A stretch of 64,000 nucleotides of DNA, from sequence record MH675927.1. One strand, 5' to 3'. Positions 6,526 through 59,824 of this stretch are shown here, piece after piece. This DNA is from Escherichia phage vB_vPM_PD114. A program made the position numbers and the translations under genes. Within the stretch, counting starts at the first letter, position 1. The number at the start of each line of letters is the position of its first letter. Below the pieces are notes generated by a model that did no database searches, was not told where the DNA came from, and saw nothing but the letters and a program-made list of their open reading frames with translations.

Positions 6526-6720
6526 ATGAAAAATAGCGTAGATTGGGATGATTTATCCGATTTTGAAAAATGGTTCTTAGGTAGTGGTTGTTATGCAGAT
6601 GAGGATCTCGAAAGAGATCCTTCTGGAAACTACACTATGCCATTAACCCAAGGTTTTTATGAGTGCTGGTGCGCAGCACAAGACAACGTACTGAATAAGG
6701 AGACAACACAATGCAATTAA
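6526..6720 (+). CDS. hypothetical protein
   Basis: track ORF 6469..6720 trimmed to ATG after upstream stop. Confidence 0.5.
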   Translation: MKNSVDWDDLSDFEKWFLGSGCYADEDLERDPSGNYTMPLTQGFYECWCAAQDNVLNKETTQCN

Positions 6721-48506: not shown

Positions 48507-49400
48507 ATGAAAGTTAGTATTCTGCATGGTGTTGACTGTTATGTTACTGATGTAGACGTTAAAGTGTTTACATTCTCTGGTGGAGAACAACATGTTCAAT
48601 TAGATACGAATCTATCAGGTTTCAATCATGCTACAGACAGAATCTTACTCACTTTAGAAGTAAGATCTGCTAAAGACTTGATGACTTTGGTTATGACTAA
48701 GAATGCATTGGACAATATGCTATATCATAAACCATATTGTGTTGATTTACTCATGTTGTATGTGCCGTATGCACGACAAGACAGAGTGTGTGAGCCTGGG
48801 GAAGCATTCGGAGTTAAAGCATTTGCTTCTATAATTAATTCATTAAATTTCTCACGTGTTATCGTTGCTGATCCGCATAGTGATGTTACTCCAGCAGTGT
48901 TTGACAGACTCTGTGTAATACCTCAAGAGGAGATTGCTTACGAAACTTTAAAGTGGAAGTTACGTATGGAGAATTTTGCTCTTGTTAGCCCTGATGGTGG
49001 TGCTCTTAAGAAAATATTTAAATTATCTAAGAAAATGTCTTTAGATGTGTTCTGTGCAGAGAAGGTTAGAGATACCGCAACAGGTGCTATTGTTCGTACA
49101 GACATTTCTGTACAGGATTTCAATAAGCGTAACCTGATGATCGTAGATGATATCTGTGATGGTGGTAGAACTTTTATTGAATTGGCTAAAGTGCTACGTG
49201 CTCGTAACGCAGGTAAGATTGAGTTATATGTTACACACGGTATCTTCTCTAAAGGTCTTAAAGAGTTGAGTGAACACTTTGACTGCATTCATTCTCTTAA
49301 TGTGTGGGAAGATAACATCCAAGAAGATTCCGGTGTTCTTGTTAAGAATCAGTCAGATTTGCAACAACAAATTGTATCTCCATACGTGTGGAATTTTTAA
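48507..49400 (+). CDS. ribose-phosphate pyrophosphokinase-like enzyme (Prs homolog; Adps-type candidate)
   Basis: YARQDR motif and PRPP-binding loop LMIVDDICDGGRT; SD taaggagataaaga. Confidence 0.75.
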   Translation: MKVSILHGVDCYVTDVDVKVFTFSGGEQHVQLDTNLSGFNHATDRILLTLEVRSAKDLMTLVMTKNALDNMLYHKPYCVDLLMLYVPYARQDRVCEPGEAFGVKAFASIINSLNFSRVIVADPHSDVTPAVFDRLCVIPQEEIAYETLKWKLRMENFALVSPDGGALKKIFKLSKKMSLDVFCAEKVRDTATGAIVRTDISVQDFNKRNLMIVDDICDGGRTFIELAKVLRARNAGKIELYVTHGIFSKGLKELSEHFDCIHSLNVWEDNIQEDSGVLVKNQSDLQQQIVSPYVWNF

Positions 49401-49410
49401 ATAATAAGTG

Positions 49411-49439
49411 TTGACAATAGGGAGTATGCTTAGTAAGAT
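49411..49439 (+). promoter_or_regulatory. sigma70-like promoter (TTGACA-N17-TAAGAT)
   Basis: near-consensus hexamers upstream of 49472 gene. Confidence 0.5.
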
Positions 49440-49471
49440 ACTCCCACATTAACAAACAAGGAGACATAACT

Positions 49472-51205
49472 ATGAATATTTTTGCACCTTTTGCTACTGA
49501 TTGGTACAAACCTGGTCACAAGCAGATGTACAATCAAAATACAAAACTCATTTTCTCTAATTTAACTCCTCGTAATGATAAAAACTTTGCACACTATGCA
49601 GATCGTGAAGCACGTGGTGTGATTGTTTTAGGTATTCGTCGAGCAGTCACTGATGCTCTTGTAACTATGTGGGATAGCTTCTTTAAAATGTCTCGTAGTG
49701 CAGCAGTAAATAAATTTTATCGTATGTCTAAAAATGCATTAGGTGCTTCTGCTCCTTCTGCTGAATGTTGGGGAGAATTGCACGATTTAGGTTATCTTCC
49801 GCTGGAAGTTCGATCTCTGCCAGAAGGTGTTTTGTGTCCTATTGGTGTTCCTGTGTTTACTGTGCATAATACTTTAGAAAAATTCTTTTGGTTAACTAAC
49901 TATGTGGAAACACTGTTGTCAGATGAAACTTGGAAGACAATGACTAATGCCACAGCAGCTTTTCAGTATAAGCGTATCGCTATGGCATATGCGATGGCAA
50001 CGTGTGATAATATTGATCACGTTAACTTCCAGTGTCATGACTTTAGCCTACGTGGTTTAAGTAATATCGAAGATGGTTATAAGAGTGGTATCGCTCACTT
50101 GGCATCGTTCACAGGAACAGATAATATTCTGGCTATTGAAACTGTGCATGACTATTATGGTATTGATTATGATCAGTTTGTTGCAGGTTCTATTCCGGCA
50201 ACAGAACATTCAGTAGCAACGACTAACATTGGAGCTATTGTTGAAGATCTGAAGAAACATTTCCCACATCTTAAAGATGATGTAGATGGGCTTCGTTATG
50301 TAGCAGAAAAAGAGTTTCTTCGTCGTTATATCGAAGAAATTGTTCCAGAAGGTTTTTGTTCATATGTAGCAGACTCTTATGACTATTGGGCTGTATTGAC
50401 TCGCATTCTGGTAGAATTGAAAGATTCCATTATGTCACGAAATGGTCGTCTTGTTATTCGTCCAGATTCAGGAGATCCGGTTAAAGTTGTTGCAGGATAC
50501 AATGTTGAATCTTTTGATAACTATGAAGACCTCTTAAATAATGGTATTGCGACAGCCACTGAAGTAGTTCATTTGGCTGATGTTAATAAGTATTACAATG
50601 TTCTTCAGGATTGCAGTGTTGCTGACTGTATTGATGAAACTTATGAGATTCCTTATTGTGAAGCAGTAGGTTCTATTCAAATCCTTTGGGAAGTGTTTGG
50701 TGGTACTATCAACCGAAAAGGCTACAAGGTTCTTGATCAGCATATCGGTATGATTTATGGTGATTCTATTACTGTTGAACGAGAACACGAGATCTTACGC
50801 CGACTGAAGAAGAAAGGTTTTGCAGCTTCCAATATTGTATTTGGTGTTGGTAGTTATACTTATCAGTTCAATACACGAGATACTTTTGGTTTTGCTGTTA
50901 AAGCAACAGGTAGTATTATCGGTGAACACGAAATTTTGGTAAGTAAGGAGCCTAAAACTGATCCTGGTAAACGCTCTGCAAAAGGTTTTATTAAGGTTGT
51001 TAAGGATACCAATGGTAATCTGTCTCTTGTAGATAATCTTTCTTTTAAAGATATCCAGGATGAAGACAATGAGTTACAAGTTATCTTCAAGGATGGTAAG
51101 GTTATTACACCACAAGTAGAAGGCCGTGATGAAACATTCACTGATATCCGCAACCGTGTTGACGTAGAGGTTCTTCGTACTATGGGAACCATCCAGGTTG
51201 ACTAA
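49472..51205 (+). CDS. nicotinamide phosphoribosyltransferase family enzyme (Nampt homolog; Namat-type candidate)
   Basis: Nampt-family blocks HDFSLRG, LVIRPDSGDP, GMIYGDSIT, KTDPGKRSAKG; 577 aa with N-terminal extension. Confidence 0.8.
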   Translation: MNIFAPFATDWYKPGHKQMYNQNTKLIFSNLTPRNDKNFAHYADREARGVIVLGIRRAVTDALVTMWDSFFKMSRSAAVNKFYRMSKNALGASAPSAECWGELHDLGYLPLEVRSLPEGVLCPIGVPVFTVHNTLEKFFWLTNYVETLLSDETWKTMTNATAAFQYKRIAMAYAMATCDNIDHVNFQCHDFSLRGLSNIEDGYKSGIAHLASFTGTDNILAIETVHDYYGIDYDQFVAGSIPATEHSVATTNIGAIVEDLKKHFPHLKDDVDGLRYVAEKEFLRRYIEEIVPEGFCSYVADSYDYWAVLTRILVELKDSIMSRNGRLVIRPDSGDPVKVVAGYNVESFDNYEDLLNNGIATATEVVHLADVNKYYNVLQDCSVADCIDETYEIPYCEAVGSIQILWEVFGGTINRKGYKVLDQHIGMIYGDSITVEREHEILRRLKKKGFAASNIVFGVGSYTYQFNTRDTFGFAVKATGSIIGEHEILVSKEPKTDPGKRSAKGFIKVVKDTNGNLSLVDNLSFKDIQDEDNELQVIFKDGKVITPQVEGRDETFTDIRNRVDVEVLRTMGTIQVD

Positions 51206-51952: not shown

Positions 51953-52028
51953 GGTTCCATAGCTCACTGACGAGAGCGCACACCTCATAAGTGTCGAGGG
52001 CAGGGATTGTAACCCTGGGGAACCACCA
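51953..52028 (+). tRNA. tRNA with CAT anticodon (Met or Ile-lysidine), atypical T-loop
   Basis: acceptor GGTTCC/GGAACC, D-arm GCTC-actgacga-GAGC, anticodon loop CTCATAA, 3' ACCA; T-loop ATTGTAA non-canonical, 7:66 mismatch. Confidence 0.45.
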
Positions 52029-52059
52029 TTTAAAAGGAGATGCTATGCATCTCCTATAT

Positions 52060-52145
52060 GCAAGTGTGGTGGAATTGGTGATACACATTGTGCTTAAAAC
52101 GCAACGCTTAAATGATTGAGGGTTCGAATCCCTCCACTTGCACCA
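52060..52145 (+). tRNA. tRNA-Leu (TAA)
   Basis: 7-bp acceptor GCAAGTG/CACTTGC, anticodon loop CTTAAAA, long variable arm, T-arm GAGGGTTCGAATCCCTC, encoded CCA. Confidence 0.7.
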
Positions 52146-52147
52146 AC

Positions 52148-52253
52148 GCCTAGTAGGGTATTTGGTAATTCCGAGGCCATCAAAGCCTGAAAAATATGTT
52201 AGACCGCTTTGTCTAACTAAATACGAAATATGGTTCGATTCCATAACTAGGCT
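52148..52253 (+). ncRNA. atypical 106-nt tRNA-like RNA (possible TCA anticodon hairpin, long extra arm)
   Basis: perfect 7-bp acceptor GCCTAGT/ACTAGGC and canonical T-arm TATGGTTCGATTCCATA but about 30 nt too long; 7-bp extra hairpin gttagac-cgcttt-gtctaac; fold not computed. Confidence 0.3.
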
Positions 52254-52285
52254 TCAATTTAAATAATAATTTTAGTAAAAATATC

Positions 52286-52314
52286 TTGACATTCACTTAG
52301 TTTTTTGTTATAGT
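52286..52314 (+). promoter_or_regulatory. sigma70-like promoter (TTGACA-N17-TATAGT)
   Basis: about 12 nt upstream of tRNA-like gene at 52326. Confidence 0.5.
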
Positions 52315-52325
52315 TACTGTGAAAA

Positions 52326-52407
52326 CGGGGTGTATCTCACCTGACTTCTAATCAGGCGTTAACCGAGTAATTGGAGTATGCAGGTTCGAATCCTGTCACC
52401 CCGACCA
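52326..52407 (+). ncRNA. atypical tRNA-like RNA with TCT (Arg-type) anticodon hairpin, no canonical D-arm
   Basis: 7/7 acceptor CGGGGTG/CACCCCG, T-arm GCAGGTTCGAATCCTGT, ACCA end; anticodon-like hairpin cctga-CTTCTAA-tcagg begins at position 15. Confidence 0.35.
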
Positions 52408-52425
52408 AAAAGTTTTAAAAACTAC

Positions 52426-52454
52426 TTGACAAGCAAGATAGTTTTATGTTAGAT
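52426..52454 (+). promoter_or_regulatory. sigma70-like promoter (TTGACA-N17-TTAGAT)
   Basis: upstream of tRNA-Ser at 52471. Confidence 0.5.
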
Positions 52455-52470
52455 TTAAAGTATGATAACG

Positions 52471-52560
52471 GGAAGGTAGGGCGCAGCGGTGCGCAACCAG
52501 GTTTGAACCCTGGCCCATTGTAGCGATACGGTGATGGTTCGACTCCATTATCTTCCTCCA
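52471..52560 (+). tRNA. tRNA-Ser (TGA)
   Basis: acceptor GGAAGGT/ATCTTCC (one GU), D-stem GCGC, anticodon stem CCAGG/CCTGG loop TTTGAAC, long variable arm, T-arm, CCA; anchored to ORF track at 52531. Confidence 0.65.
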
Positions 52561-52578
52561 AATTCAACTAGGAGCTTT

Positions 52579-52731
52579 ATGAATTATAAAACTATTGGAC
52601 AGGTTGTTACCGGAGTTAAGATTGTAGATAATAAAGTTGTTTATGAGTATTCTAATCTTCAACAATCTGAAGATGGTAAAAATATTCGTATGGTAAAAGC
52701 AGAACAAAAAGATTCCGGTTGTTTTGAATAA
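52579..52731 (+). CDS. hypothetical protein (50 aa)
   Basis: track ORF 52531..52731 overlaps tRNA-Ser; trimmed to ATG after taggagc. Confidence 0.45.
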   Translation: MNYKTIGQVVTGVKIVDNKVVYEYSNLQQSEDGKNIRMVKAEQKDSGCFE

Positions 52732-52739
52732 TTAAGAAC

Positions 52740-52825
52740 GGTAGATTGGTGAAATGGTAGCCACAACAGTTTGCTAAACTGTCGTCGGAAACGGCGTGTA
52801 GGTTCAAGTCCTACATCTACCGCCA
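52740..52825 (+). tRNA. tRNA-Ser (GCT)
   Basis: perfect acceptor GGTAGAT/ATCTACC, anticodon stem ACAGT/ACTGT loop TTGCTAA, long variable arm, T-arm GTAGGTTCAAGTCCTAC, CCA. Confidence 0.7.
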
Positions 52826-52845
52826 AATTTATGCGAGGAGGATGT

Positions 52846-53226
52846 ATGCCAAGCAATGATTATATGCGGGAATACATGAAAACTCGGTGGCAGAAGCGAA
52901 GAGCTTCCGCAATCCTCCAGCTTGGAGGTAAATGTGTTAATTGTGGGTCTGTAGATGACTTGGAATTTGATCATAAAGATTCAAGCGAGAAGAAGTTTTA
53001 TATTAGTCGAATGAGTTCATGCTCTGAGGCTAAATGGCAGGAAGAACTTGCCAAATGTCAACTTTTGTGCCATGACTGTCACATGAAGAAGACAAGAATA
53101 TCCCAAGACATGGGAAACAGAATTAGAACAACGGTGTGTGTTTGCGGGGCAGTATTTTATAGTACAAAGGCTTATGCTGGACATACACGGTGGTGTAAAG
53201 AGTATGCATCGTTAGCCAAGCGGTAA
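52846..53226 (+). CDS. HNH endonuclease (free-standing, inside tRNA cluster)
   Basis: CVNCGS..DHKD..CHDCH HNH motifs; track ORF 52771..53226 begins inside tRNA-Ser, trimmed to ATG after gaggagg; 3' end overlaps tRNA-Lys by about 21 nt. Confidence 0.65.
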   Translation: MPSNDYMREYMKTRWQKRRASAILQLGGKCVNCGSVDDLEFDHKDSSEKKFYISRMSSCSEAKWQEELAKCQLLCHDCHMKKTRISQDMGNRIRTTVCVCGAVFYSTKAYAGHTRWCKEYASLAKR

Positions 53227-53280
53227 GGCACTTGACTTTTAATCAAGGGAGCGAAGGTTCGAATCCTTCACGATGTACCA
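53206..53280 (+). tRNA. tRNA-Lys (TTT)
   Basis: acceptor GCATCGT/ACGATGT (G1-U72), anticodon stem CTTGA/TCAAG loop CTTTTAA, T-arm GAAGGTTCGAATCCTTC, CCA. Confidence 0.7.
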
Positions 53281-53285
53281 AACAC

Positions 53286-53372
53286 GTAGGTATCGCATAG
53301 CGGCAATTGCTGGAGACTGTAAATCTCCTGCCCTTCGGGGCTTCGTTGGTTCGAGTCCAACTACCTGCACCA
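53286..53372 (+). tRNA. tRNA-Tyr (GTA)
   Basis: acceptor GTAGGTA/TACCTGC, anticodon stem GGAGA/TCTCC loop CTGTAAA, long variable arm, T-arm, CCA. Confidence 0.7.
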
Positions 53373-53379
53373 AATTAAA

Positions 53380-53463
53380 GATGGATTGGCCTAGTGGTTG
53401 GGCGACGGACTGTTAATCCGTGAACGAAAGTTCTAGCAAGGTTCAAATCCTTGATCCATCGCC
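53380..53463 (+). tRNA. type II (long variable arm) tRNA with GTT anticodon (Asn-decoding)
   Basis: perfect acceptor GATGGAT/ATCCATC, anticodon stem ACGGA/TCCGT loop CTGTTAA, extra arm gaac-gaaa-gttc, T-arm CAAGGTTCAAATCCTTG, CCA. Confidence 0.5.
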
Positions 53464-53471
53464 AGAATTAT

Positions 53472-53548
53472 GGACTTGTAGAGTTAAGGTAAACCCTCAG
53501 TCGCAAAGAGGCTTCTGGAATTGCAGGTATCGAATCCTGCCGAGTCCA
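53472..53548 (+). ncRNA. degenerate tRNA-like element
   Basis: acceptor GGACTTG/CGAGTCC and 8-nt T-loop GCAGG-TATCGAAT-CCTGC but no canonical 5-7-5 anticodon arm; no CCA. Confidence 0.3.
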
Positions 53549-53554
53549 ATTATT

Positions 53555-53629
53555 GCTCCTATCGTATAACGGCTATTACGGTTGCCTTGTAAGCAACTTA
53601 TCAGGGTTCGAGTCCTTGTGGGAGCACCA
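53555..53629 (+). tRNA. tRNA-Thr (TGT)
   Basis: acceptor GCTCCTA/TGGGAGC, D-arm GTA..TAC, anticodon stem GTTGC/GCAAC loop CTTGTAA, T-arm, CCA. Confidence 0.7.
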
Positions 53630-53652
53630 ATTTTAACTCTAAAGGAGTGTAT

Positions 53653-53976
53653 GTGACAGAAAAAGAGTTAGAGAAATATTTTAATATCAATGTTTTCGAT
53701 GGTTTTGATGATATTGAAGATGTTGAAAGATATTATGAAGTAGAGTTAGATAAGGATAACATTGTAATTCTTTCTGCCACTTATGATTGTGCATATTATG
53801 AAGGTGAATCTCACGTTTATTTTTATGATATGAAAACATCTTTGTTTTATGAAGTACACGCATATCATTGTTCTTGTTATGGTTTAGAAGGTCAGTGGGA
53901 ACCTGAAGAAATAGGTGATTTGAGCTTTACGGTTGCATATCTAAACAGACGTGGTGCATCTACTATTTTAAAATAA
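53653..53976 (+). CDS. hypothetical protein
   Basis: track ORF 53647..53976; probable start at second GTG after aaaggag. Confidence 0.5.
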   Translation: MTEKELEKYFNINVFDGFDDIEDVERYYEVELDKDNIVILSATYDCAYYEGESHVYFYDMKTSLFYEVHAYHCSCYGLEGQWEPEEIGDLSFTVAYLNRRGASTILK

Positions 53977-53990
53977 ATATTAAAAGCCTC

Positions 53991-54020
53991 TTGACAAAGG
54001 GGCTAATAATATGTTAGAGT
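53991..54020 (+). promoter_or_regulatory. sigma70-like promoter (TTGACA-N17-TTAGAG)
   Basis: upstream of tRNA-Gly. Confidence 0.5.
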
Positions 54021-54031
54021 AATATTGTTAA

Positions 54032-54106
54032 GCGGGTATAGTGTTAATGGTAGCATATGAGGTTTCCACCCTCCAGGTGCAGGTTCAAGTCCTGTTACTC
54101 GCTCCA
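54032..54106 (+). tRNA. tRNA-Gly (TCC)
   Basis: acceptor GCGGGTA/TACTCGC (one GU), anticodon loop TTTCCAC, T-arm GCAGGTTCAAGTCCTGT, CCA. Confidence 0.7.
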
Positions 54107-54537
54107 AGATTATTTAAATGGAATCGCTAGAGAAAATTTCTCTTTTCGCTCATGGTTTTCTCCTTCAAACTCTAGCGGTTCTTTTTAAGTGATTTTTTAG
54201 TTTATTGGAGATTCACTGCCTTAGTGTGAGCTAAAATCGAGGAGCCATCGAACTGTCTGATTAATGATTTGCGAATCATTATAGTTTTAAGACCCCGGCA
54301 GTTTTATGGTGTACCTCTTGAATGTGAATGATGACGGGTTTATGGTTATCCTGGTCGTTAAATATCCAAAAACCTATGTTCCCCTTGAGGGCTTGCGCAG
54401 GCAATGCCAATAAGTCCTGCATTTTCATTTAAAAGAGAATTTATAATGGAAAAAGATGAACTTAAGTATGCTAAGCCTCTGGCTTCTGCTGCACGAAAAG
54501 CAGTTCGTCACTTTGTGGTAACACTGAAGTAATTTAT
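54107..54537 (+). other. structured noncoding spacer inside tRNA cluster (candidate small RNAs)
   Basis: 8-bp stem cgctagag/ctctagcg then U-tract (approx 54125-54190); hairpin taatgatt-tgcg-aatcatta (approx 54259-54278); gcagg..cctgc hairpin plus U-tract (approx 54393-54430); no convincing ORF. Confidence 0.35.
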
Positions 54538-54612
54538 TGGAGATTAGCCTAGTGGGAAGGCAACGGCCTTTGAAGTCGTGATGACTAGGTTCGATTCCTA
54601 GATCTCCAGCCA
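54538..54612 (+). tRNA. tRNA-Gln (TTG)
   Basis: perfect acceptor TGGAGAT/ATCTCCA, D-stem GCC/GGC, anticodon loop CTTTGAA, T-arm CTAGGTTCGATTCCTAG, CCA. Confidence 0.7.
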
Positions 54613-54619
54613 AGATTTA

Positions 54620-54695
54620 CAGTGCGTAGCGCAGTTGGTAGCGTGGGAGCCTTGGACGCTTCAGGTCGCAGGTTCGAGTCCTGCCGCACTGACCA
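54620..54695 (+). tRNA. tRNA-Pro (TGG)
   Basis: perfect acceptor CAGTGCG/CGCACTG, D-arm GCGC-AGTTGGTA-GCGT, anticodon loop CTTGGAC, T-arm GCAGGTTCGAGTCCTGC, CCA. Confidence 0.75.
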
Positions 54696-54700
54696 AATTT

Positions 54701-54775
54701 GCAGAGATAGCTGAGACGGATTAGTGCTACCCTGAAAAGGTAGAAAGGATGGATCGTTACCATCTCTCTGCACCA
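54701..54775 (+). tRNA. tRNA-Phe (GAA)
   Basis: perfect acceptor GCAGAGA/TCTCTGC, anticodon stem CTACC/GGTAG loop CTGAAAA, T-arm GATGGATCGTTACCATC, CCA. Confidence 0.7.
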
Positions 54776-54852
54776 AATAACACCATCCAAGGAGTAGACT
54801 TGGTTAACTGTCAATAGCACATTGAGGCTTCTTACAGTGGTGTACTTATTAT

Positions 54853-54937
54853 GGCTAAGTGGTGGAATGGTATACACGATACGCTTAGAACGTATTGCCC
54901 CAAGGGATTGTGAGTTCGAGTCTCACCTTAGCTACCA
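54853..54937 (+). tRNA. tRNA-Leu (TAG)
   Basis: acceptor GGCTAAG/CTTAGCT (G1-U72), anticodon stem ATACG/CGTAT loop CTTAGAA, long variable arm, T-arm GTGAGTTCGAGTCTCAC, CCA. Confidence 0.7.
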
Positions 54938-54952
54938 AATTATTACAGATTG

Positions 54953-55031
54953 CGCGGGATAGAGGAGTCTGGTCGTCCTCGCCAGTTTCATATGCTGGAG
55001 ATCATCGGTTCAAATCCGATTCCCGCCTCCA
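54953..55031 (+). tRNA. tRNA-Met (CAT), possible initiator type
   Basis: acceptor CGCGGGA/TCCCGCC with 1:72 mismatch, D-stem GAGG/CCTC, anticodon loop TTCATAT, T-arm ATCGGTTCAAATCCGAT, CCA. Confidence 0.55.
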
Positions 55032-55089
55032 CTAAATACCTCCCTTCTGGTGTAATGATTAAATTACATTGACACCTCAAGGAACTCAT

Positions 55090-55172
55090 AGCTGGGTAGA
55101 TTTAAAAGAGTATGGTACTCAATATGGCTCCAAACCATAGATCAAGGGGTTCGATTCCTCACCTTGCTGCCA
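55090..55172 (+). ncRNA. tRNA-Trp-like (CCA anticodon) with irregular 5' region
   Basis: anticodon arm TATGG-CTCCAAA-CCATA, D-like arm GAG-TATGGTA-CTC, T-loop TTCGATT, 3' CCTTGCT-G-CCA; only 6/7 acceptor candidate, separated from D-arm by about 11 nt. Confidence 0.35.
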
Positions 55173-55177
55173 ATTAT

Positions 55178-55253
55178 TGTGGTATCGTACAGATGGTTAG
55201 TACACTCGACCGATAATCGAGAAACAACGGTTCGACTCCGTTTACCACGACCA
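55178..55253 (+). tRNA. tRNA-Ile (GAT)
   Basis: 76 nt; acceptor TGTGGTA/TACCACG (U1-G72), D-stem GTAC, anticodon stem CTCGA/TCGAG loop CCGATAA, T-arm AACGGTTCGACTCCGTT, CCA. Confidence 0.6.
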
Positions 55254-55366
55254 AACTCCGTGCCAGCGGTGTCTTCGAAGAACAAGCCTAGTTCCTTCTG
55301 AGATGGAGGGGTGCGACTCCTTAACGCACAATTCTAATAAAGCATTTCAACTTAACAGTATTTATT

Positions 55367-55390
55367 AGCCTCCTTATTGGAGGCTTTTTG
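55367..55390 (+). terminator. rho-independent terminator closing the tRNA operon
   Basis: agcctcc-ttatt-ggaggct hairpin followed by TTTTTG. Confidence 0.6.
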
Positions 55391-55408
55391 CTATTTATTG
55401 AATAAAAC

Positions 55409-56770: not shown

Positions 56771-57999
56771 GTGGCAAGGAAACCTGTCAAACAATCTTTT
56801 GAAAATGTAGATATTGAAGTTAAAGCCCAACCTGGCAAACAAACACTAGCTATGGATCTTATGCCTGAAGTAATGATTTATGGTGGTGCGGCAGGTTGTG
56901 TTTCAGCAGAAACAGAATACTTAACAAGAGACGGTTGGAAACAAATAAGTGAATATGATGGTGAGGATATTTATCAATACAATCCAAGAAACAAACGTCT
57001 TGAATTAGTTACACCATCTTTTGTAGAATATGATGCTAAAGATAATCTGTATTGTATTACAAACGGAGTAGGTGTCTTCCAAGAATTAAGTATGGAACAT
57101 CGCTTTGTTTTCTACAAGAAGAAAAAATCCAAAAAACATTTTGAAATTCTTGTTGGGGATCTTATTGCACTACAGCAAGCAGGACACCCATTACGAGGAT
57201 ATATTGAAAATCCTTTTGGTAAACGTGTTCCGTTTAACATTCAAGGTAAACCTAGCACATATCTAAAAATTCATGAGGTAATGACAAGTGATGATAAGAA
57301 ATATTGCTTTGAAACTCCAAGCAGTTATGTCGTGTTTAGACGTGGCGATCACATCTTCGTTACTGGGAATAGCGGCAAAAGCCGTCTGCTACTTCTAAAA
57401 GCACTTAAATACGCATATAAAGATCCACTGTTTGGTGGTATTCTTTTCCGTAAAAATACAACAGCTTTACGTAAATCTGGTGGTTTGTTTACTGAAGCTA
57501 AAAAACTTTATCTACCATTAAAGCCTCACGTAAGAGAACAGGCTATGGAGATGGAGTTCAGAGCCACAAAAGGTGGCACACTTAAATTTGACCATCTTGA
57601 AAATGATAACGTAACTGCTGAAACTAACCATCAAGGTACACAGTATTCGATGGTAGGGTTTGACGAACTTACACATTTTACACAATATGAAATGCTGTAT
57701 CTGTTAGGGCGTATGCGTTCTGAATCAGAAACATCTTTTATGCTGTGTACTTGTAACCCTGATGCTGACAGTTGGGTGTTGAAATGGGTACTTCCTTATT
57801 TGGATGAAGCTGGTTATCCACGGGAAGATATGTGTGGCAAACAGCTATACTTTCTTATTGTGCAAGATGAACCAGTATTTGCTGAAACAGCAGAAGAGTT
57901 GAAAGAAAAGTATCCTGAAAACTGTTTTATGCAAAACCCAAACACAGGTGAAACAGTGGTTATTGAACCACAAACATTTGTGTTCATTGGTGGAACCAT
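56771..57999 (+). CDS. terL: terminase large subunit, exon 1 (ATPase domain, contains intein)
   Basis: Walker A split as GGAAG | intein | SGKS; track ORF runs to stop at 58009 but inferred 5' splice site follows T at 57999. Confidence 0.65.
56897..57370 (+). other. mini-intein (158 aa) inserted in TerL Walker A loop
   Basis: begins CVSAETEYLTRDG (intein block A-like), internal T..H block (ITNGVGVF..MEHRFV), ends ..DHIFVTGN followed by Ser; excision gives GGAAGSGKS. Confidence 0.65.
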
Positions 58000-58064
58000 T
58001 AATCAATAGTGGCTTTGTGCAGCGATGCACATCGAATAACTTTGTTAATTGCTGGGAAGTCTAT

Positions 58065-58093
58065 TGACAAATAGATAATCAGCAGCTATAATC
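58065..58093 (+). promoter_or_regulatory. sigma70-like promoter inside intron (TTGACA-N17-TATAAT)
   Basis: consensus hexamers about 30 nt upstream of homing endonuclease ATG. Confidence 0.55.
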
Positions 58094-58124
58094 ACTTCTC
58101 CAAAAATATTAGTAGGAGAGTAAA

Positions 58125-58805
58125 ATGAAAAACTTAGATTTCATCGGATACCCGCATTATTGCGCCACATACGATGGTCGTATTTTTAGTTTATACACCC
58201 AAAAATTCCTAAGCGAAAATAAGATGCTTGGAGATTACAAGGGAGTAACCATTTGTGAAAATGGTAACAGGATAGAAGAATTACAGCACAGGTTGATAGC
58301 AAAAGCATTTGTGCCTAACCCTGAAAATAAGCCTTTTGTTAATCACAAAGATGGCAACAAACTTAATAATTGTGCAGACAATCTTGAGTGGACAACAGAA
58401 CAAGAGAATACTCTTCACGCTATGTCCACAGGGTTAAGACGAACAGAAGTCATAAATGACTACAGACCTATTCCAGACACTGTTGCTGTGGAAATTTGCA
58501 AACTGTTAGAGCAAGGATCACGTAACAAAGATATCTGTCAGATGTATAATGTGGCACAATCTGTTGTTAGTGATATAAAAGCTGGCAGAACATATAAAGA
58601 CATTTCACAAGACTTTAACTTTAGAAAAATACCCTCTTCCAACAGAATAAGTGAAGATAAAGTCTTAGGGATTTGTGAAAAGCTGCAAGAAAATATTCTA
58701 TCAATAAATAAAATAGCTAAAAAATACGGCGTAAGTTTTAATGTAGTTAAGAGTATTAAAGATAGGAAAACCTATACGTACTTATCTAATAACTACAATT
58801 GGTGA
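58125..58805 (+). CDS. HNH homing endonuclease (intron-encoded)
   Basis: HNH block HRLIAKAFVPNPENKPFVNHKDGNKLNNCADNLEW; SD taggagag; located inside the terL intron. Confidence 0.75.
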   Translation: MKNLDFIGYPHYCATYDGRIFSLYTQKFLSENKMLGDYKGVTICENGNRIEELQHRLIAKAFVPNPENKPFVNHKDGNKLNNCADNLEWTTEQENTLHAMSTGLRRTEVINDYRPIPDTVAVEICKLLEQGSRNKDICQMYNVAQSVVSDIKAGRTYKDISQDFNFRKIPSSNRISEDKVLGICEKLQENILSINKIAKKYGVSFNVVKSIKDRKTYTYLSNNYNW

Positions 58806-58992
58806 TGTAGTTCAACGACTATCCCGAAAGGGAGTAGGGCAGAAGCAAATGCTGCTCGAAAAGCAAAGCATCTCTTAGGAGATGATGATATAGTCTATTC
58901 TGCACAGTGATGTGCAGCAGTTCATAAGAGAACGTGGAGTAGAGTTGCGACTACTCCAGAATAAAAAGATTTGATAACCCTGAACTAATAAG

Positions 58993-59824
58993 ACTTAACC
59001 CTAAATACTTAGCTTCTTTGAAGGCTCAAACCGCCGTTAAGAGAGCACAGCTTTTAGATGGTTGTTGGTTTGCTCGTGCGCAAGAAGAGAGTTTCTTTAA
59101 CAGAGAATGGTTACACGTTATCAAGTTTAAAGATTTACCAAACAATCTTAAATATATGCGAGCGTGGGATAAAGCAGTATCTGTTCCAACAGAATCTTAT
59201 CGTTATCCTGACTACACAACATCTGTTAAAATGGCTAAAGACTCTGATGGAAATTATTACATTTTTGGTGATTATGATTATGATGCTCACGATGAAGGTA
59301 GTAAAATTTTTGGTAGATTCAGAAGACTACCAGGTGATCGAGATAATTTAATTCTAAACCAATGTAAGATTGATGGAGATGAAGTTACAGTTGTATTGCC
59401 AAAAGATCCTTCTGGTGCTGGTTTGATTGAATATACAGAATCAGCTAAAAAACTAATTGCTGAAGGGTTTGTTGTTAAACCAGACGCTATGCCTGGTAAC
59501 AAGAAAAAGTTACAACGCTTTATGCCATTTAGTAGTGCTTGTCAAAATGGTTTTGTTTATATTGTAGAAGAATCTTTCCCTAATAAAGAAACTCTTGATC
59601 ATTTCTATAAAGAGATGGAGTCGTTTAATGGAGAAAGATCTACAGCAACATTAAAAGATGATATTCCAGATGCTGCTGCATCTTGCTTTAATACTTTGTC
59701 AAAAGAACAGATGTTTAAAGCAGTAGCAATACCTTCTGCAACAAATGCATTAACAGGGTATGGTAAGATGGGTGGAAGATCAAGAAACTCTTTATCTTCT
59801 CCATATAGTATCAGAGGAAGATAA
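58993..59824 (+). CDS. terL: terminase large subunit, exon 2 (nuclease domain)
   Basis: open frame from 58994 continuous with track ORF 59018..59824 (alternative start); acidic DDIPDAAAS motif; joins exon 1 in frame via junction codon ATA. Confidence 0.55.

Follow-up and report, generated by a model that had tools for sequence, protein, structure and literature searches.

The window analyzed here, 64,000 nucleotides (nt) of Escherichia phage vB_vPM_PD114 (sequence record MH675927.1), contains at positions 55090-55172 (+) an 83-nt stretch that reads directly as a gene like that of the transfer RNA (tRNA) for tryptophan with anticodon CCA, tRNA-Trp(CCA). The locus raises the question of whether this gene is damaged or is a working tRNA gene of another build. 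A preliminary description had proposed a Trp-type (CCA) tRNA-like gene with a disrupted 5′ end, noting that the best partner for the 3′ acceptor strand, AGCTGGG at 55090 (6/7 paired), lay too far upstream of the D arm, and had suggested an insertion, a 5′ truncation or a non-canonical acceptor. We find from comparison of homologues that the locus is almost certainly a selected, folded RNA gene with five helices. We further consider it probable that, over the whole chain of steps set out below, it serves as a functional, structurally non-canonical elongator tRNA-Trp(CCA) with a remodelled core. The layout of the element in the window is as follows.

55090-55096 (+), acceptor stem 5′ strand AGCUGGG (tRNA positions 1 to 7), paired with 55162-55168
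55097-55098 (+), U8 and A9, the two canonical connector nucleotides; A9 is invariant in subfamily a and nearly so family-wide
55099-55101 (+), extra helix 5′ strand GAU (connector nt 3 to 5), Watson-Crick complement of 55141-55143
55102-55107 (+), linker UUAAAA between the extra helix and the D hairpin; family motif UU(U/A)AA(N), minimally UAA
55108-55120 (+), D hairpin with a 5-base-pair (bp) stem, GAGUA/UACUC, and triloop UGG, from pairing and covariation; the GG is invariant
55121-55122 (+), junction AA, 2 nt, the second corresponding to position 26
55123-55139 (+), anticodon arm UAUGG-CUCCAAA-CCAUA with anticodon CCA at 55130-55132, U33, A37 and A38; the stem covaries
55140-55144 (+), variable loop GAUCA, of which AUC at 55141-55143 (positions 45 to 47) is the extra-helix 3′ strand; A48 is invariant
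55145-55161 (+), T arm AGGGG-UUCGAUU-CCUCA, with a conserved 49·65 mismatch (A·A) and a canonical T loop
55162-55168 (+), acceptor stem 3′ strand CCUUGCU (positions 66 to 72), paired with 55090-55096
55169 (+), discriminator G73, followed by the encoded CCA end at 55170-55172

The acceptor stem of the window copy opens with the pairs A1-U72 and G2-C71, preceded by a T at position −1, and is paired at six of its seven positions, with one G·U and a U4·U69 mismatch. Between acceptor and D hairpin runs the connector TAGATTTAAAA, which spans 11 nt (55097-55107) where a canonical tRNA has 2 and thus holds 9 extra nt. Set against a canonical tRNA, the RNA has a 7-bp acceptor that closes the molecule, a discriminator and a CCA end, a 5-bp anticodon stem with a 7-nt loop containing U33, and a T arm with a UUCRANY loop in which only the outermost stem pair, 49-65, is mismatched. 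It departs from the canonical plan in the 2-nt connector, in detection by the family model at threshold and in the form of its D arm. A canonical D arm has 3 to 4 bp and a 7- to 11-nt loop with A14, R15, G18, G19 and A21, to which the window copy does not conform: the usual D-loop bases 14, 15 and 21 are absent, and the GG of its triloop is presumed to be G18 G19.

The comparative evidence comes from about 25 distinct homologues in large virulent phages of at least four subfamilies, both enterobacterial (Stephanstirmvirinae, Vequintavirinae, Ounavirinae) and Bacillus (Bastillevirinae). The window is identical to Escherichia phage vB_vPM_PD06 (Stephanstirmvirinae, Justusliebigvirus), and the region is present at 96 to 100% identity in ∼55 close relatives, including phi92. 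Distant copies (73 to 80% identity) occur in Klebsiella phages of the Stephanstirmvirinae, in Pectobacterium POP15 and Salmonella SSBI34 (both Vequintavirinae), in E. coli Av-05 (Avunavirus) and Salmonella PVP-SE1 (Seunavirus), and in Hafnia Zyzzx, “Listeria” LPML1 and CHB7 (all Ounavirinae). Pattern scans of IMG/VR yielded uncultured variants (L020 on a 216-kilobase [kb] contig, L009/L012, L026, L028 and L030). A related subfamily of 84 to 85 nt, in which the first pair is G1·U72, is found in Bastillevirinae of the Bacillus cereus group (Bc431v3, Bcp1, BM15, TsarBomba, BCP78, BCP8-2, Thurquoise, JBP901, P59 and f2b1); phages of this group carry subfamilies b and c of the family, and subfamily a includes the window copy. 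Across all lineages the element measures 79 to 85 nt and its connector 7 to 12 nt, in phages of Gram-negative and Gram-positive hosts alike. In every genome inspected, called tRNAs of the same strand flank it and leave a gap of tRNA size that it fills; nearly all records are blank there or overlaid with “hypothetical protein,” and a few say tRNA-Trp. A scan of 596 gigabases (Gb) of cellular genomes with a loose 5′-half pattern gave no complete element among the at least 120 matches listed, and a metagenome scan with a strict full-length pattern returned only 3 loci, all copies of known variants.

The homologues also fix the 5′ end. In all distant relatives homology starts 1 to 3 nt upstream of 55090. 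In phages SD2 (L240 517-825) and Salmonella UAB_1, an HNH homing-endonuclease gene sits between tRNA-Met and the Trp-type RNA, stopping 6 nt before +1 and leaving the 83 nt intact; the tRNA cluster is thus a target for mobile endonuclease genes. Because the start of homology and the boundary of the HNH insertion agree, we place the 5′ end at 55090.

Some host labels among the carriers look inconsistent with their sequences. MG065639 and others, named “Campylobacter phage A150...,” are 98% identical to E. coli Justusliebigviruses; OK283618 (“Listeria phage LPML1”) belongs to the Ounavirinae, near Hafnia phage Zyzzx; and MN940411 (“Phage f2b1,” host given as S. aureus) belongs to the Bastillevirinae. 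Mislabelling of the host or contamination is the probable cause. Separately, many contigs of temperate-phage size (L195, L199, L203, L213, L216, L219 and others) hold tRNA-Trp(CCA) genes with shortened or odd D regions, and L016, L022, L047 and L048 hold tRNA-Trp 3′ halves only, probably integration-site remnants.

To weigh the fold, we scored a model consisting of a cloverleaf with the upstream acceptor plus the extra helix (25 pairs in all) on a gapless alignment of nine subfamily-a sequences. In this alignment, 93.3% of cells were paired, compared to 71.3 ± 1.8% with shuffled partners and 39 to 52% when the 3′ partners were slid by 1 to 3 columns. Change on both sides was seen at 15/25 pairs (7.9 ± 1.6 in shuffles), and the covariation score was 0.633 versus 0.172; 0/500 shuffles reached any of the observed values. 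The signal was spread over the molecule. The acceptor was 90.5% paired, with pairs 3-70, 6-67 and 7-66 changing on both sides; the D hairpin was 95.6% paired and the anticodon stem 100% paired, each with 4/5 pairs changed on both sides; the T stem was 84.4% paired, with 2/5 pairs covarying and the four inner pairs either conserved or covarying; and the extra helix was 100% paired, with AU, CG and GC at its middle pair. The second junction base and the first base of the variable loop form G·U or purine mismatches across the nine sequences, like 26·44 of ordinary tRNAs.

The wider family behaved in the same way. In a 26-member alignment, which was fitted to the model and hence favours it, 89.5% of cells were paired (58.7% in shuffles), 22/25 pairs changed on both sides, including all seven of the acceptor, and two-sided change affected 192 cells (58.6 in shuffles). 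Because some of the sequences behind these family-wide counts are related to one another, comparison with shuffles makes them look more independent than they are; sounder evidence comes from the slid partners and from the variety of pair types. The D arm itself takes two forms, having 5 bp and an NGG triloop in enterobacterial phages (UGU in SSBI34) and 3 to 4 bp with an 8- to 9-nt loop containing GG in the Bacillus-phage members, CHB7 and the Trp copy of L028; subfamilies b and c have 3 bp and a 9-nt loop.

The extra nucleotides are part of this fold. Nucleotides 3 to 5 of the connector are Watson-Crick complementary to nucleotides 2 to 4 of the variable loop (positions 45 to 47), and the two triplets change together. 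Nine different complementary pairs (connector/variable loop) occur across the family.

GAU/AUC, in the window and L026
AGU/ACU, in Klebsiella phages
GCU/AGC, in the Hafnia phage and L009
GGU/ACC, in Citrobacter Tr1 and L020
AAC/GUU, in Bc431v3 and Thurquoise
AGC/GCU, in L197 and TsarBomba
GGA/UCC, in f2b1
GAG/CUC, in P59
ACU/AGU, in L030

Double compensatory changes separate even close relatives, as in f2b1 versus P59 and in Bc431v3 versus L197. When 18 RNAs were parsed by hand, a perfect 3-bp match was present in 15/18, almost always in the same register, whereas shuffled connectors in any register gave a mean of 7.3/18 perfect matches and a maximum of 14 in 2000 trials. In the 26-member alignment the extra helix was 97% paired, with two-sided change at all 3 pairs; as this larger alignment was fitted to the model, we regard the result of the hand parse as the fairer of the two. 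By sequence comparison, then, every member of the family has the long connector, and the predicted extra helix is perfect in most lineages, not all. The helix is nested rather than a pseudoknot, with the D hairpin and anticodon arm inside it and the T arm outside. As it abuts 26·44, it could stack on the anticodon stem in the usual place of the D stem, or could lie beside the D hairpin. In the linker that follows, subfamily a never varies at T12-T14 or A16-A17, and all members inspected share a UAA core; TTTAAA forms a palindrome in some members, not all, and by inspection the UU(W)AA motif has no covarying partner in the T loop or D loop.

Much of the preliminary description survives this comparison. 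The Trp-type assignment stands on direct reading and the invariant CCA anticodon; AGCTGGG is the true 5′ acceptor strand, paired at 6/7 positions and covarying across homologues; and its excessive distance from the D arm is real, amounting to an 11-nt connector in place of 2 nt. The suggested insertion was also correct, with 7 to 12 nt that are conserved, structured and covarying with the variable loop. The related phages in which the orthologous locus was to be compared keep the same architecture, insertion included. The truncation can be dropped, given where homology begins in all relatives, as can the non-canonical acceptor, since the stem is a normal one of 7 bp that covaries at the three pairs named above. 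“Disrupted 5′ end” was therefore misleading for a gene whose acceptor covaries and whose insertion is conserved and base-paired.

Several observations weigh against a working tRNA. ARAGORN called 15 tRNAs in the cluster, the 55090-55172 RNA not among them, and missed all of the homologues on which it was run. Rfam gave no match at 55090-55172 at the gathering threshold; in E-value mode its tRNA model (RF00005) reached 22.9 bits (cut-off, 29) over 55109-55169 with the D arm deleted. For a Bacillus-phage homologue, the Bc431v3 record quotes a tRNAscan-SE 1.21 score of 19.55 bits and “possible pseudogene.” The minimum free energy of −17.6 kcal/mol is no better than that of shuffled sequence (z = +0.35), even though the fold of lowest energy is the cloverleaf, its connector left open. 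Pair 4-69 is often mismatched in the family, and 49-65 is mismatched in 22/26 members. In POP15, SSBI34, PVP-SE1, CHB7 and the L028 Trp copy, the extra helix falls short of a perfect match, with 2 bp or a bulged 3 bp in the same place, and the larger alignment carries the bias toward the model mentioned above. Because thermodynamic stability gives no signal, the argument for the fold rests on covariation.

The features that would matter for charging and decoding are all in place. Among 17 aligned members, the anticodon loop YUCCAAA (U33, C34, C35, A36, A37, A38), the G53-C61 pair with the core of the T loop, U72, G73 and the encoded CCA are invariant, as is A48, the last variable-loop position (17/17); the window copy accordingly has a canonical T loop together with A36-A37-A38. 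Nearly all members carry U at −1, which is what bacterial RNase P prefers. The window RNA has what is expected of a bacterial tRNA-Trp, namely C34 C35 A36, G73 and the first acceptor pairs, and ARAGORN found no canonical tRNA-Trp within the 64-kb window. The major Trp identity elements are the discriminator, the anticodon and the first acceptor pair; G73 is a major determinant for tryptophanyl-tRNA synthetase (TrpRS) in both E. coli and B. subtilis, and in B. subtilis G2-C71, G3-C70 and G4-C69 are strong determinants and G5-C68 a minor one (PMC9976931). The coliphage and other subfamily-a acceptors begin A1-U72, G2-C71, and those of Bacillus phages (subfamily b) begin G1·U72 followed by G2-C71, G3-C70, G4-C69 and G5-C68. 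The acceptor stems therefore track the determinants of the host TrpRS, as predicted by selection for charging, and these host-matched sequences suggest selection for aminoacylation.

We infer the transcription, processing, aminoacylation, decoding and three-dimensional arrangement of the 55090-55172 RNA to be as follows. The RNA would be made as part of the polycistronic tRNA transcript of the phage, RNase P would cut its 5′ end at 55090, and the encoded CCA end would be exposed at 55172. For charging, the host TrpRS would rely on G73, the CCA anticodon and the pairs 1-72 and 2-71, and the charged RNA would read UGG. The fifth, nested helix (GAU paired with AUC at 45 to 47) would presumably replace the tertiary contacts 8-14 and 15-48 and the triples of the variable loop. 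As to why phages keep such a build, our guess is that it supplies a tRNA-Trp that host or phage tRNA-targeting enzymes do not recognize.

The build may extend beyond Trp. Besides its Trp copy, the L028 contig (IMG/VR 3300023301_000031) carries at 6576-6654 a 79-nt tRNA-Gly(UCC)-like RNA with U73, in which a connector AA-GCU-AA, a 5-bp D hairpin and a variable loop AGC-A would give the helix GCU/AGC. ARAGORN called 19 tRNAs in that cluster, missing both the Gly-type and the Trp RNA and finding no canonical Gly(UCC) or Trp gene. The Gly-type RNA is a single example, with no full-length relative among isolated phages. We tentatively raise the possibility, which we would not yet back over its alternatives, of a new structural class of working tRNA in which a helix between connector and variable loop replaces the tertiary core. 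Such a class would be shared horizontally by large virulent phages of Gram-negative and Gram-positive bacteria, would serve more than one amino acid (Trp, and Gly(UCC) in L028), and would be retained for being chargeable by host synthetases yet invisible to host or phage enzymes that cleave, deplete or modify host tRNA.

The main rival to an elongator tRNA-Trp is a stable tRNA-like RNA that does not decode, acting as a decoy or regulator that titrates a nuclease, toxin or modification enzyme targeting tRNA-Trp, or resembling the tRNA-Other of B. cereus; its Trp identity features would then be kept only for recognition by those partners. We regard this as unlikely, if less so than any other alternative. 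The core is far from the form that the ribosome and EF-Tu usually accommodate, the mismatches 4-69 and 49-65 are conserved, the same cluster holds a second aberrant tRNA (52326-52407), and the single codon of Trp makes the usual codon-bias rationale for phage tRNAs inapplicable. There is also the precedent of B. cereus tRNA-Other (PMC3399842), a pseudo-tRNA that has a Trp anticodon yet is charged poorly and is not found on polysomes; it adds to the points against a decoding role listed above. However, G73, U72, the encoded CCA, U33, the CCA anticodon, A37 and the T loop, that is, all of the charging and decoding features, are invariant, and the acceptor pairs follow host TrpRS determinants between Bacillus and enterobacterial phages. 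As a homologue, tRNA-Other was rejected: its anticodon loop, T arm and acceptor, as derived from primers, all differ, so the precedent is unrelated by sequence.

An RNA that inserts Trp at UGA, whether to extend phage proteins or to counter premature stops, is improbable. Its appeal lies in the rebuilt D-arm region, since the Hirsh suppressor mutations of E. coli tRNA-Trp (G24A, A9C) reportedly let a CCA anticodon read UGA, and the remodelling here falls in the position-9/D-stem region known for loosened tRNA-Trp decoding, a resemblance only. The open reading frames (ORFs) of the window lend it no support. TGA ends 16/83 of those of ≥80 amino acids (19%), with no avoidance, and the next in-frame stop after TGA is close (median, 2.5 codons; maximum, 34), so that no readthrough extension is evident.

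It is more improbable still that the 9 extra nt are an intervening sequence removed after transcription to leave an ordinary 74-nt tRNA-Trp. The insertion does sit at one discrete site, and homing-endonuclease genes are active in the cluster. Nevertheless, no bacterial mechanism is known for cutting ∼9 nt out at position 9/10, and covariation with the variable loop makes the inserted bases part of the folded RNA. After excision, the D hairpin would have a loop of 3 nt, and both U8 and position 48 would be left unpartnered.

A decaying pseudogene, or the remnant of a 5′-damaged tRNA-Trp, as the tRNAscan-SE label implies, would account for the low gene-finder scores and for the many genome records that are blank at the locus, and is scarcely credible given that ∼25 distinct sequences keep length and architecture with the family-wide pairing (89.5%) and two-sided changes (22/25 pairs) reported above. 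The homologues are not recent copies of one sequence, since identities fall to ∼73 to 75% with compensatory changes; conserved pairing across ∼25 sequences points to purifying selection on structure.

We give practically no weight to a D-armless tRNA starting at 55109, the best Rfam alignment, whose acceptor AGUAUGG (55109-55115 with 55162-55168) pairs at 6/7 positions in one sequence, the window: covariation rejects it, for its helix (columns 20 to 26) is 63.5% paired in the nine homologues with 4/7 pairs varying only by breaking, versus 90.5% for the upstream acceptor, its bases covary as the D hairpin instead, and homology and the HNH boundary put the 5′ end at 55090. It was the only other 5′ boundary proposed, and neither ARAGORN nor Rfam found a canonical tRNA-Trp, the outcome that the preliminary description had named as refuting it.

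An elongator tRNA-Trp thus remains our preferred reading, and its genomic setting is that of a phage tRNA array. The dense, same-strand tRNA cluster occupies 51953-55253. Two features frame the run to which the RNA belongs.

53991-54020 (+), promoter-like site TTGACA-18-TAGAGT, with TG (consensus scan only)
55367-55392 (+), intrinsic-terminator-like hairpin and T tract closing the tRNA run (scan)

After the 53991-54020 site, the same-strand order is Gly-Gln-Pro-Phe-Leu-Met-(55090-55172 RNA)-Ile, i.e., the element among seven ordinary tRNAs. Weak Rfam hits to RyhB and MicA at 55367-55392 were rejected, being just the terminator. Between tRNA-Ile and the terminator, 55254-55330 (+) is ∼98% conserved in relatives to ∼55330, where homology breaks; it contains the T-arm-like GGAGGGGUGCGACUCC, matches nothing in Rfam and does not fold significantly. 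Genes next to the cluster include none for a synthetase or a tRNA-processing enzyme. Downstream lie terminase, HNH and portal genes. Within 56771-59824 (+), terminase large-subunit frames (56771-58009) and a further ORF (59018-59824) flank an HNH endonuclease ORF (58125-58805), which suggests a homing-endonuclease insertion in or beside the terminase gene. Directly upstream of the cluster, 48507-51205 (+) encodes phosphoribosyltransferase/phosphoribosyl pyrophosphate (PRPP)-synthetase-like and nicotinate/nicotinamide phosphoribosyltransferase-family (NAPRTase-like) proteins and is a nicotinamide adenine dinucleotide (NAD)-salvage module.

The same cluster contains a second non-canonical tRNA, of Arg(UCU) type, at 52326-52407 (+), preceded by a strong promoter-like site (TTGACA-17-TATAGT, 52286-52314). 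Its acceptor is CGGGGUG/CACCCCG, its D arm is replaced by 7 nt (UAUCUCA), and its anticodon arm CCUGA-CUUCUAA-UCAGG is followed by a 23-nt variable region with a possible hairpin, a normal T arm, A73 and CCA. It scored 40 bits with Rfam and was missed by ARAGORN. The gene is conserved and unannotated in 253 phage records (≥80% coverage), among them Felixounaviruses, jumbo phage Ecwhy_1 and Klebsiella KNP2. Covariation is seen in its acceptor and anticodon stems, and its connector and variable region are nearly invariant.

If the Trp-type RNA is charged and decodes, TrpRS, EF-Tu and the ribosome can all work with a tRNA whose core has been rebuilt around an extra helix, which would be relevant to what specifies the L-shape and to orthogonal tRNA design. 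The tRNA inventories of phi92-like, rV5/PVP-SE1-like, Felix O1-like and Bastille-like phages would then be systematically short by at least one gene, because the gene escapes ARAGORN and Rfam and is labelled a pseudogene by tRNAscan-SE, and studies asking why phages carry tRNAs would therefore miss the Trp case. Since Trp has one codon, codon bias cannot explain a phage tRNA-Trp, which would point instead to supply or replacement of host tRNA during infection and to a link with tRNA-targeting defence systems.

Compared with canonical tRNA-Trp(CCA), such as E. coli trpT and the 76-nt phage genes, the RNA shares the 7-bp acceptor with A1-U72/G2-C71 or the Bacillus-type G2-G5 pairs, G73 and CCA, the loop CUCCAAA, a 5-nt variable loop, a canonical T loop and a place in a phage tRNA array. 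It differs in its 11-nt connector, its D arm of 5 bp and a 3-nt loop, its extra 3-bp helix and the mismatches 4-69 and 49-65, none of which the 76-nt canonical phage genes show. A review of natural non-canonical tRNAs (tRNA-Sec, allo-tRNAs, tRNA-Pyl and mitochondrial tRNAs) lists no such build (PMC7609411). We found the architecture undescribed in the full-text literature searched, which leaves out most subscription journals, and a prior description is possible.

Three other known systems are also close. Soil allo-tRNA-like sequences likewise have extra sequence between acceptor and D stems and are also missed by, or puzzling to, standard tools; they combine an 8/4 or 9/4 acceptor/T-stem geometry with a long variable arm like that of tRNA-Ser or tRNA-Sec and a self-contained fifth stem-loop (PMC7609411). 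In contrast, the phage RNA has a 7/5 geometry (effectively 7/4 plus a mismatch) and a short variable loop, and its insert pairs with that loop, a separation drawn from the review's description only. B. cereus tRNA-Other is similar in its Trp anticodon, in being flagged as aberrant by gene finders and in its association with mobile DNA in the B. cereus group (PMC3399842); it differs in its loop CUCCAGA, T arm GUGGG-UUCAAUU-CCCGC and acceptor 3′ strand CAUCCAC, a 3′ half rebuilt from published primers, and in its reported poor charging and embedding in larger transcripts. D-armless (type III) mitochondrial tRNAs offer a parallel for the core, as their connector contacts the variable and T loops. 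However, these RNAs lack a D hairpin and are shorter than normal, whereas the phage RNA keeps a D hairpin with GG, is longer than normal and has its source in phages of bacteria.

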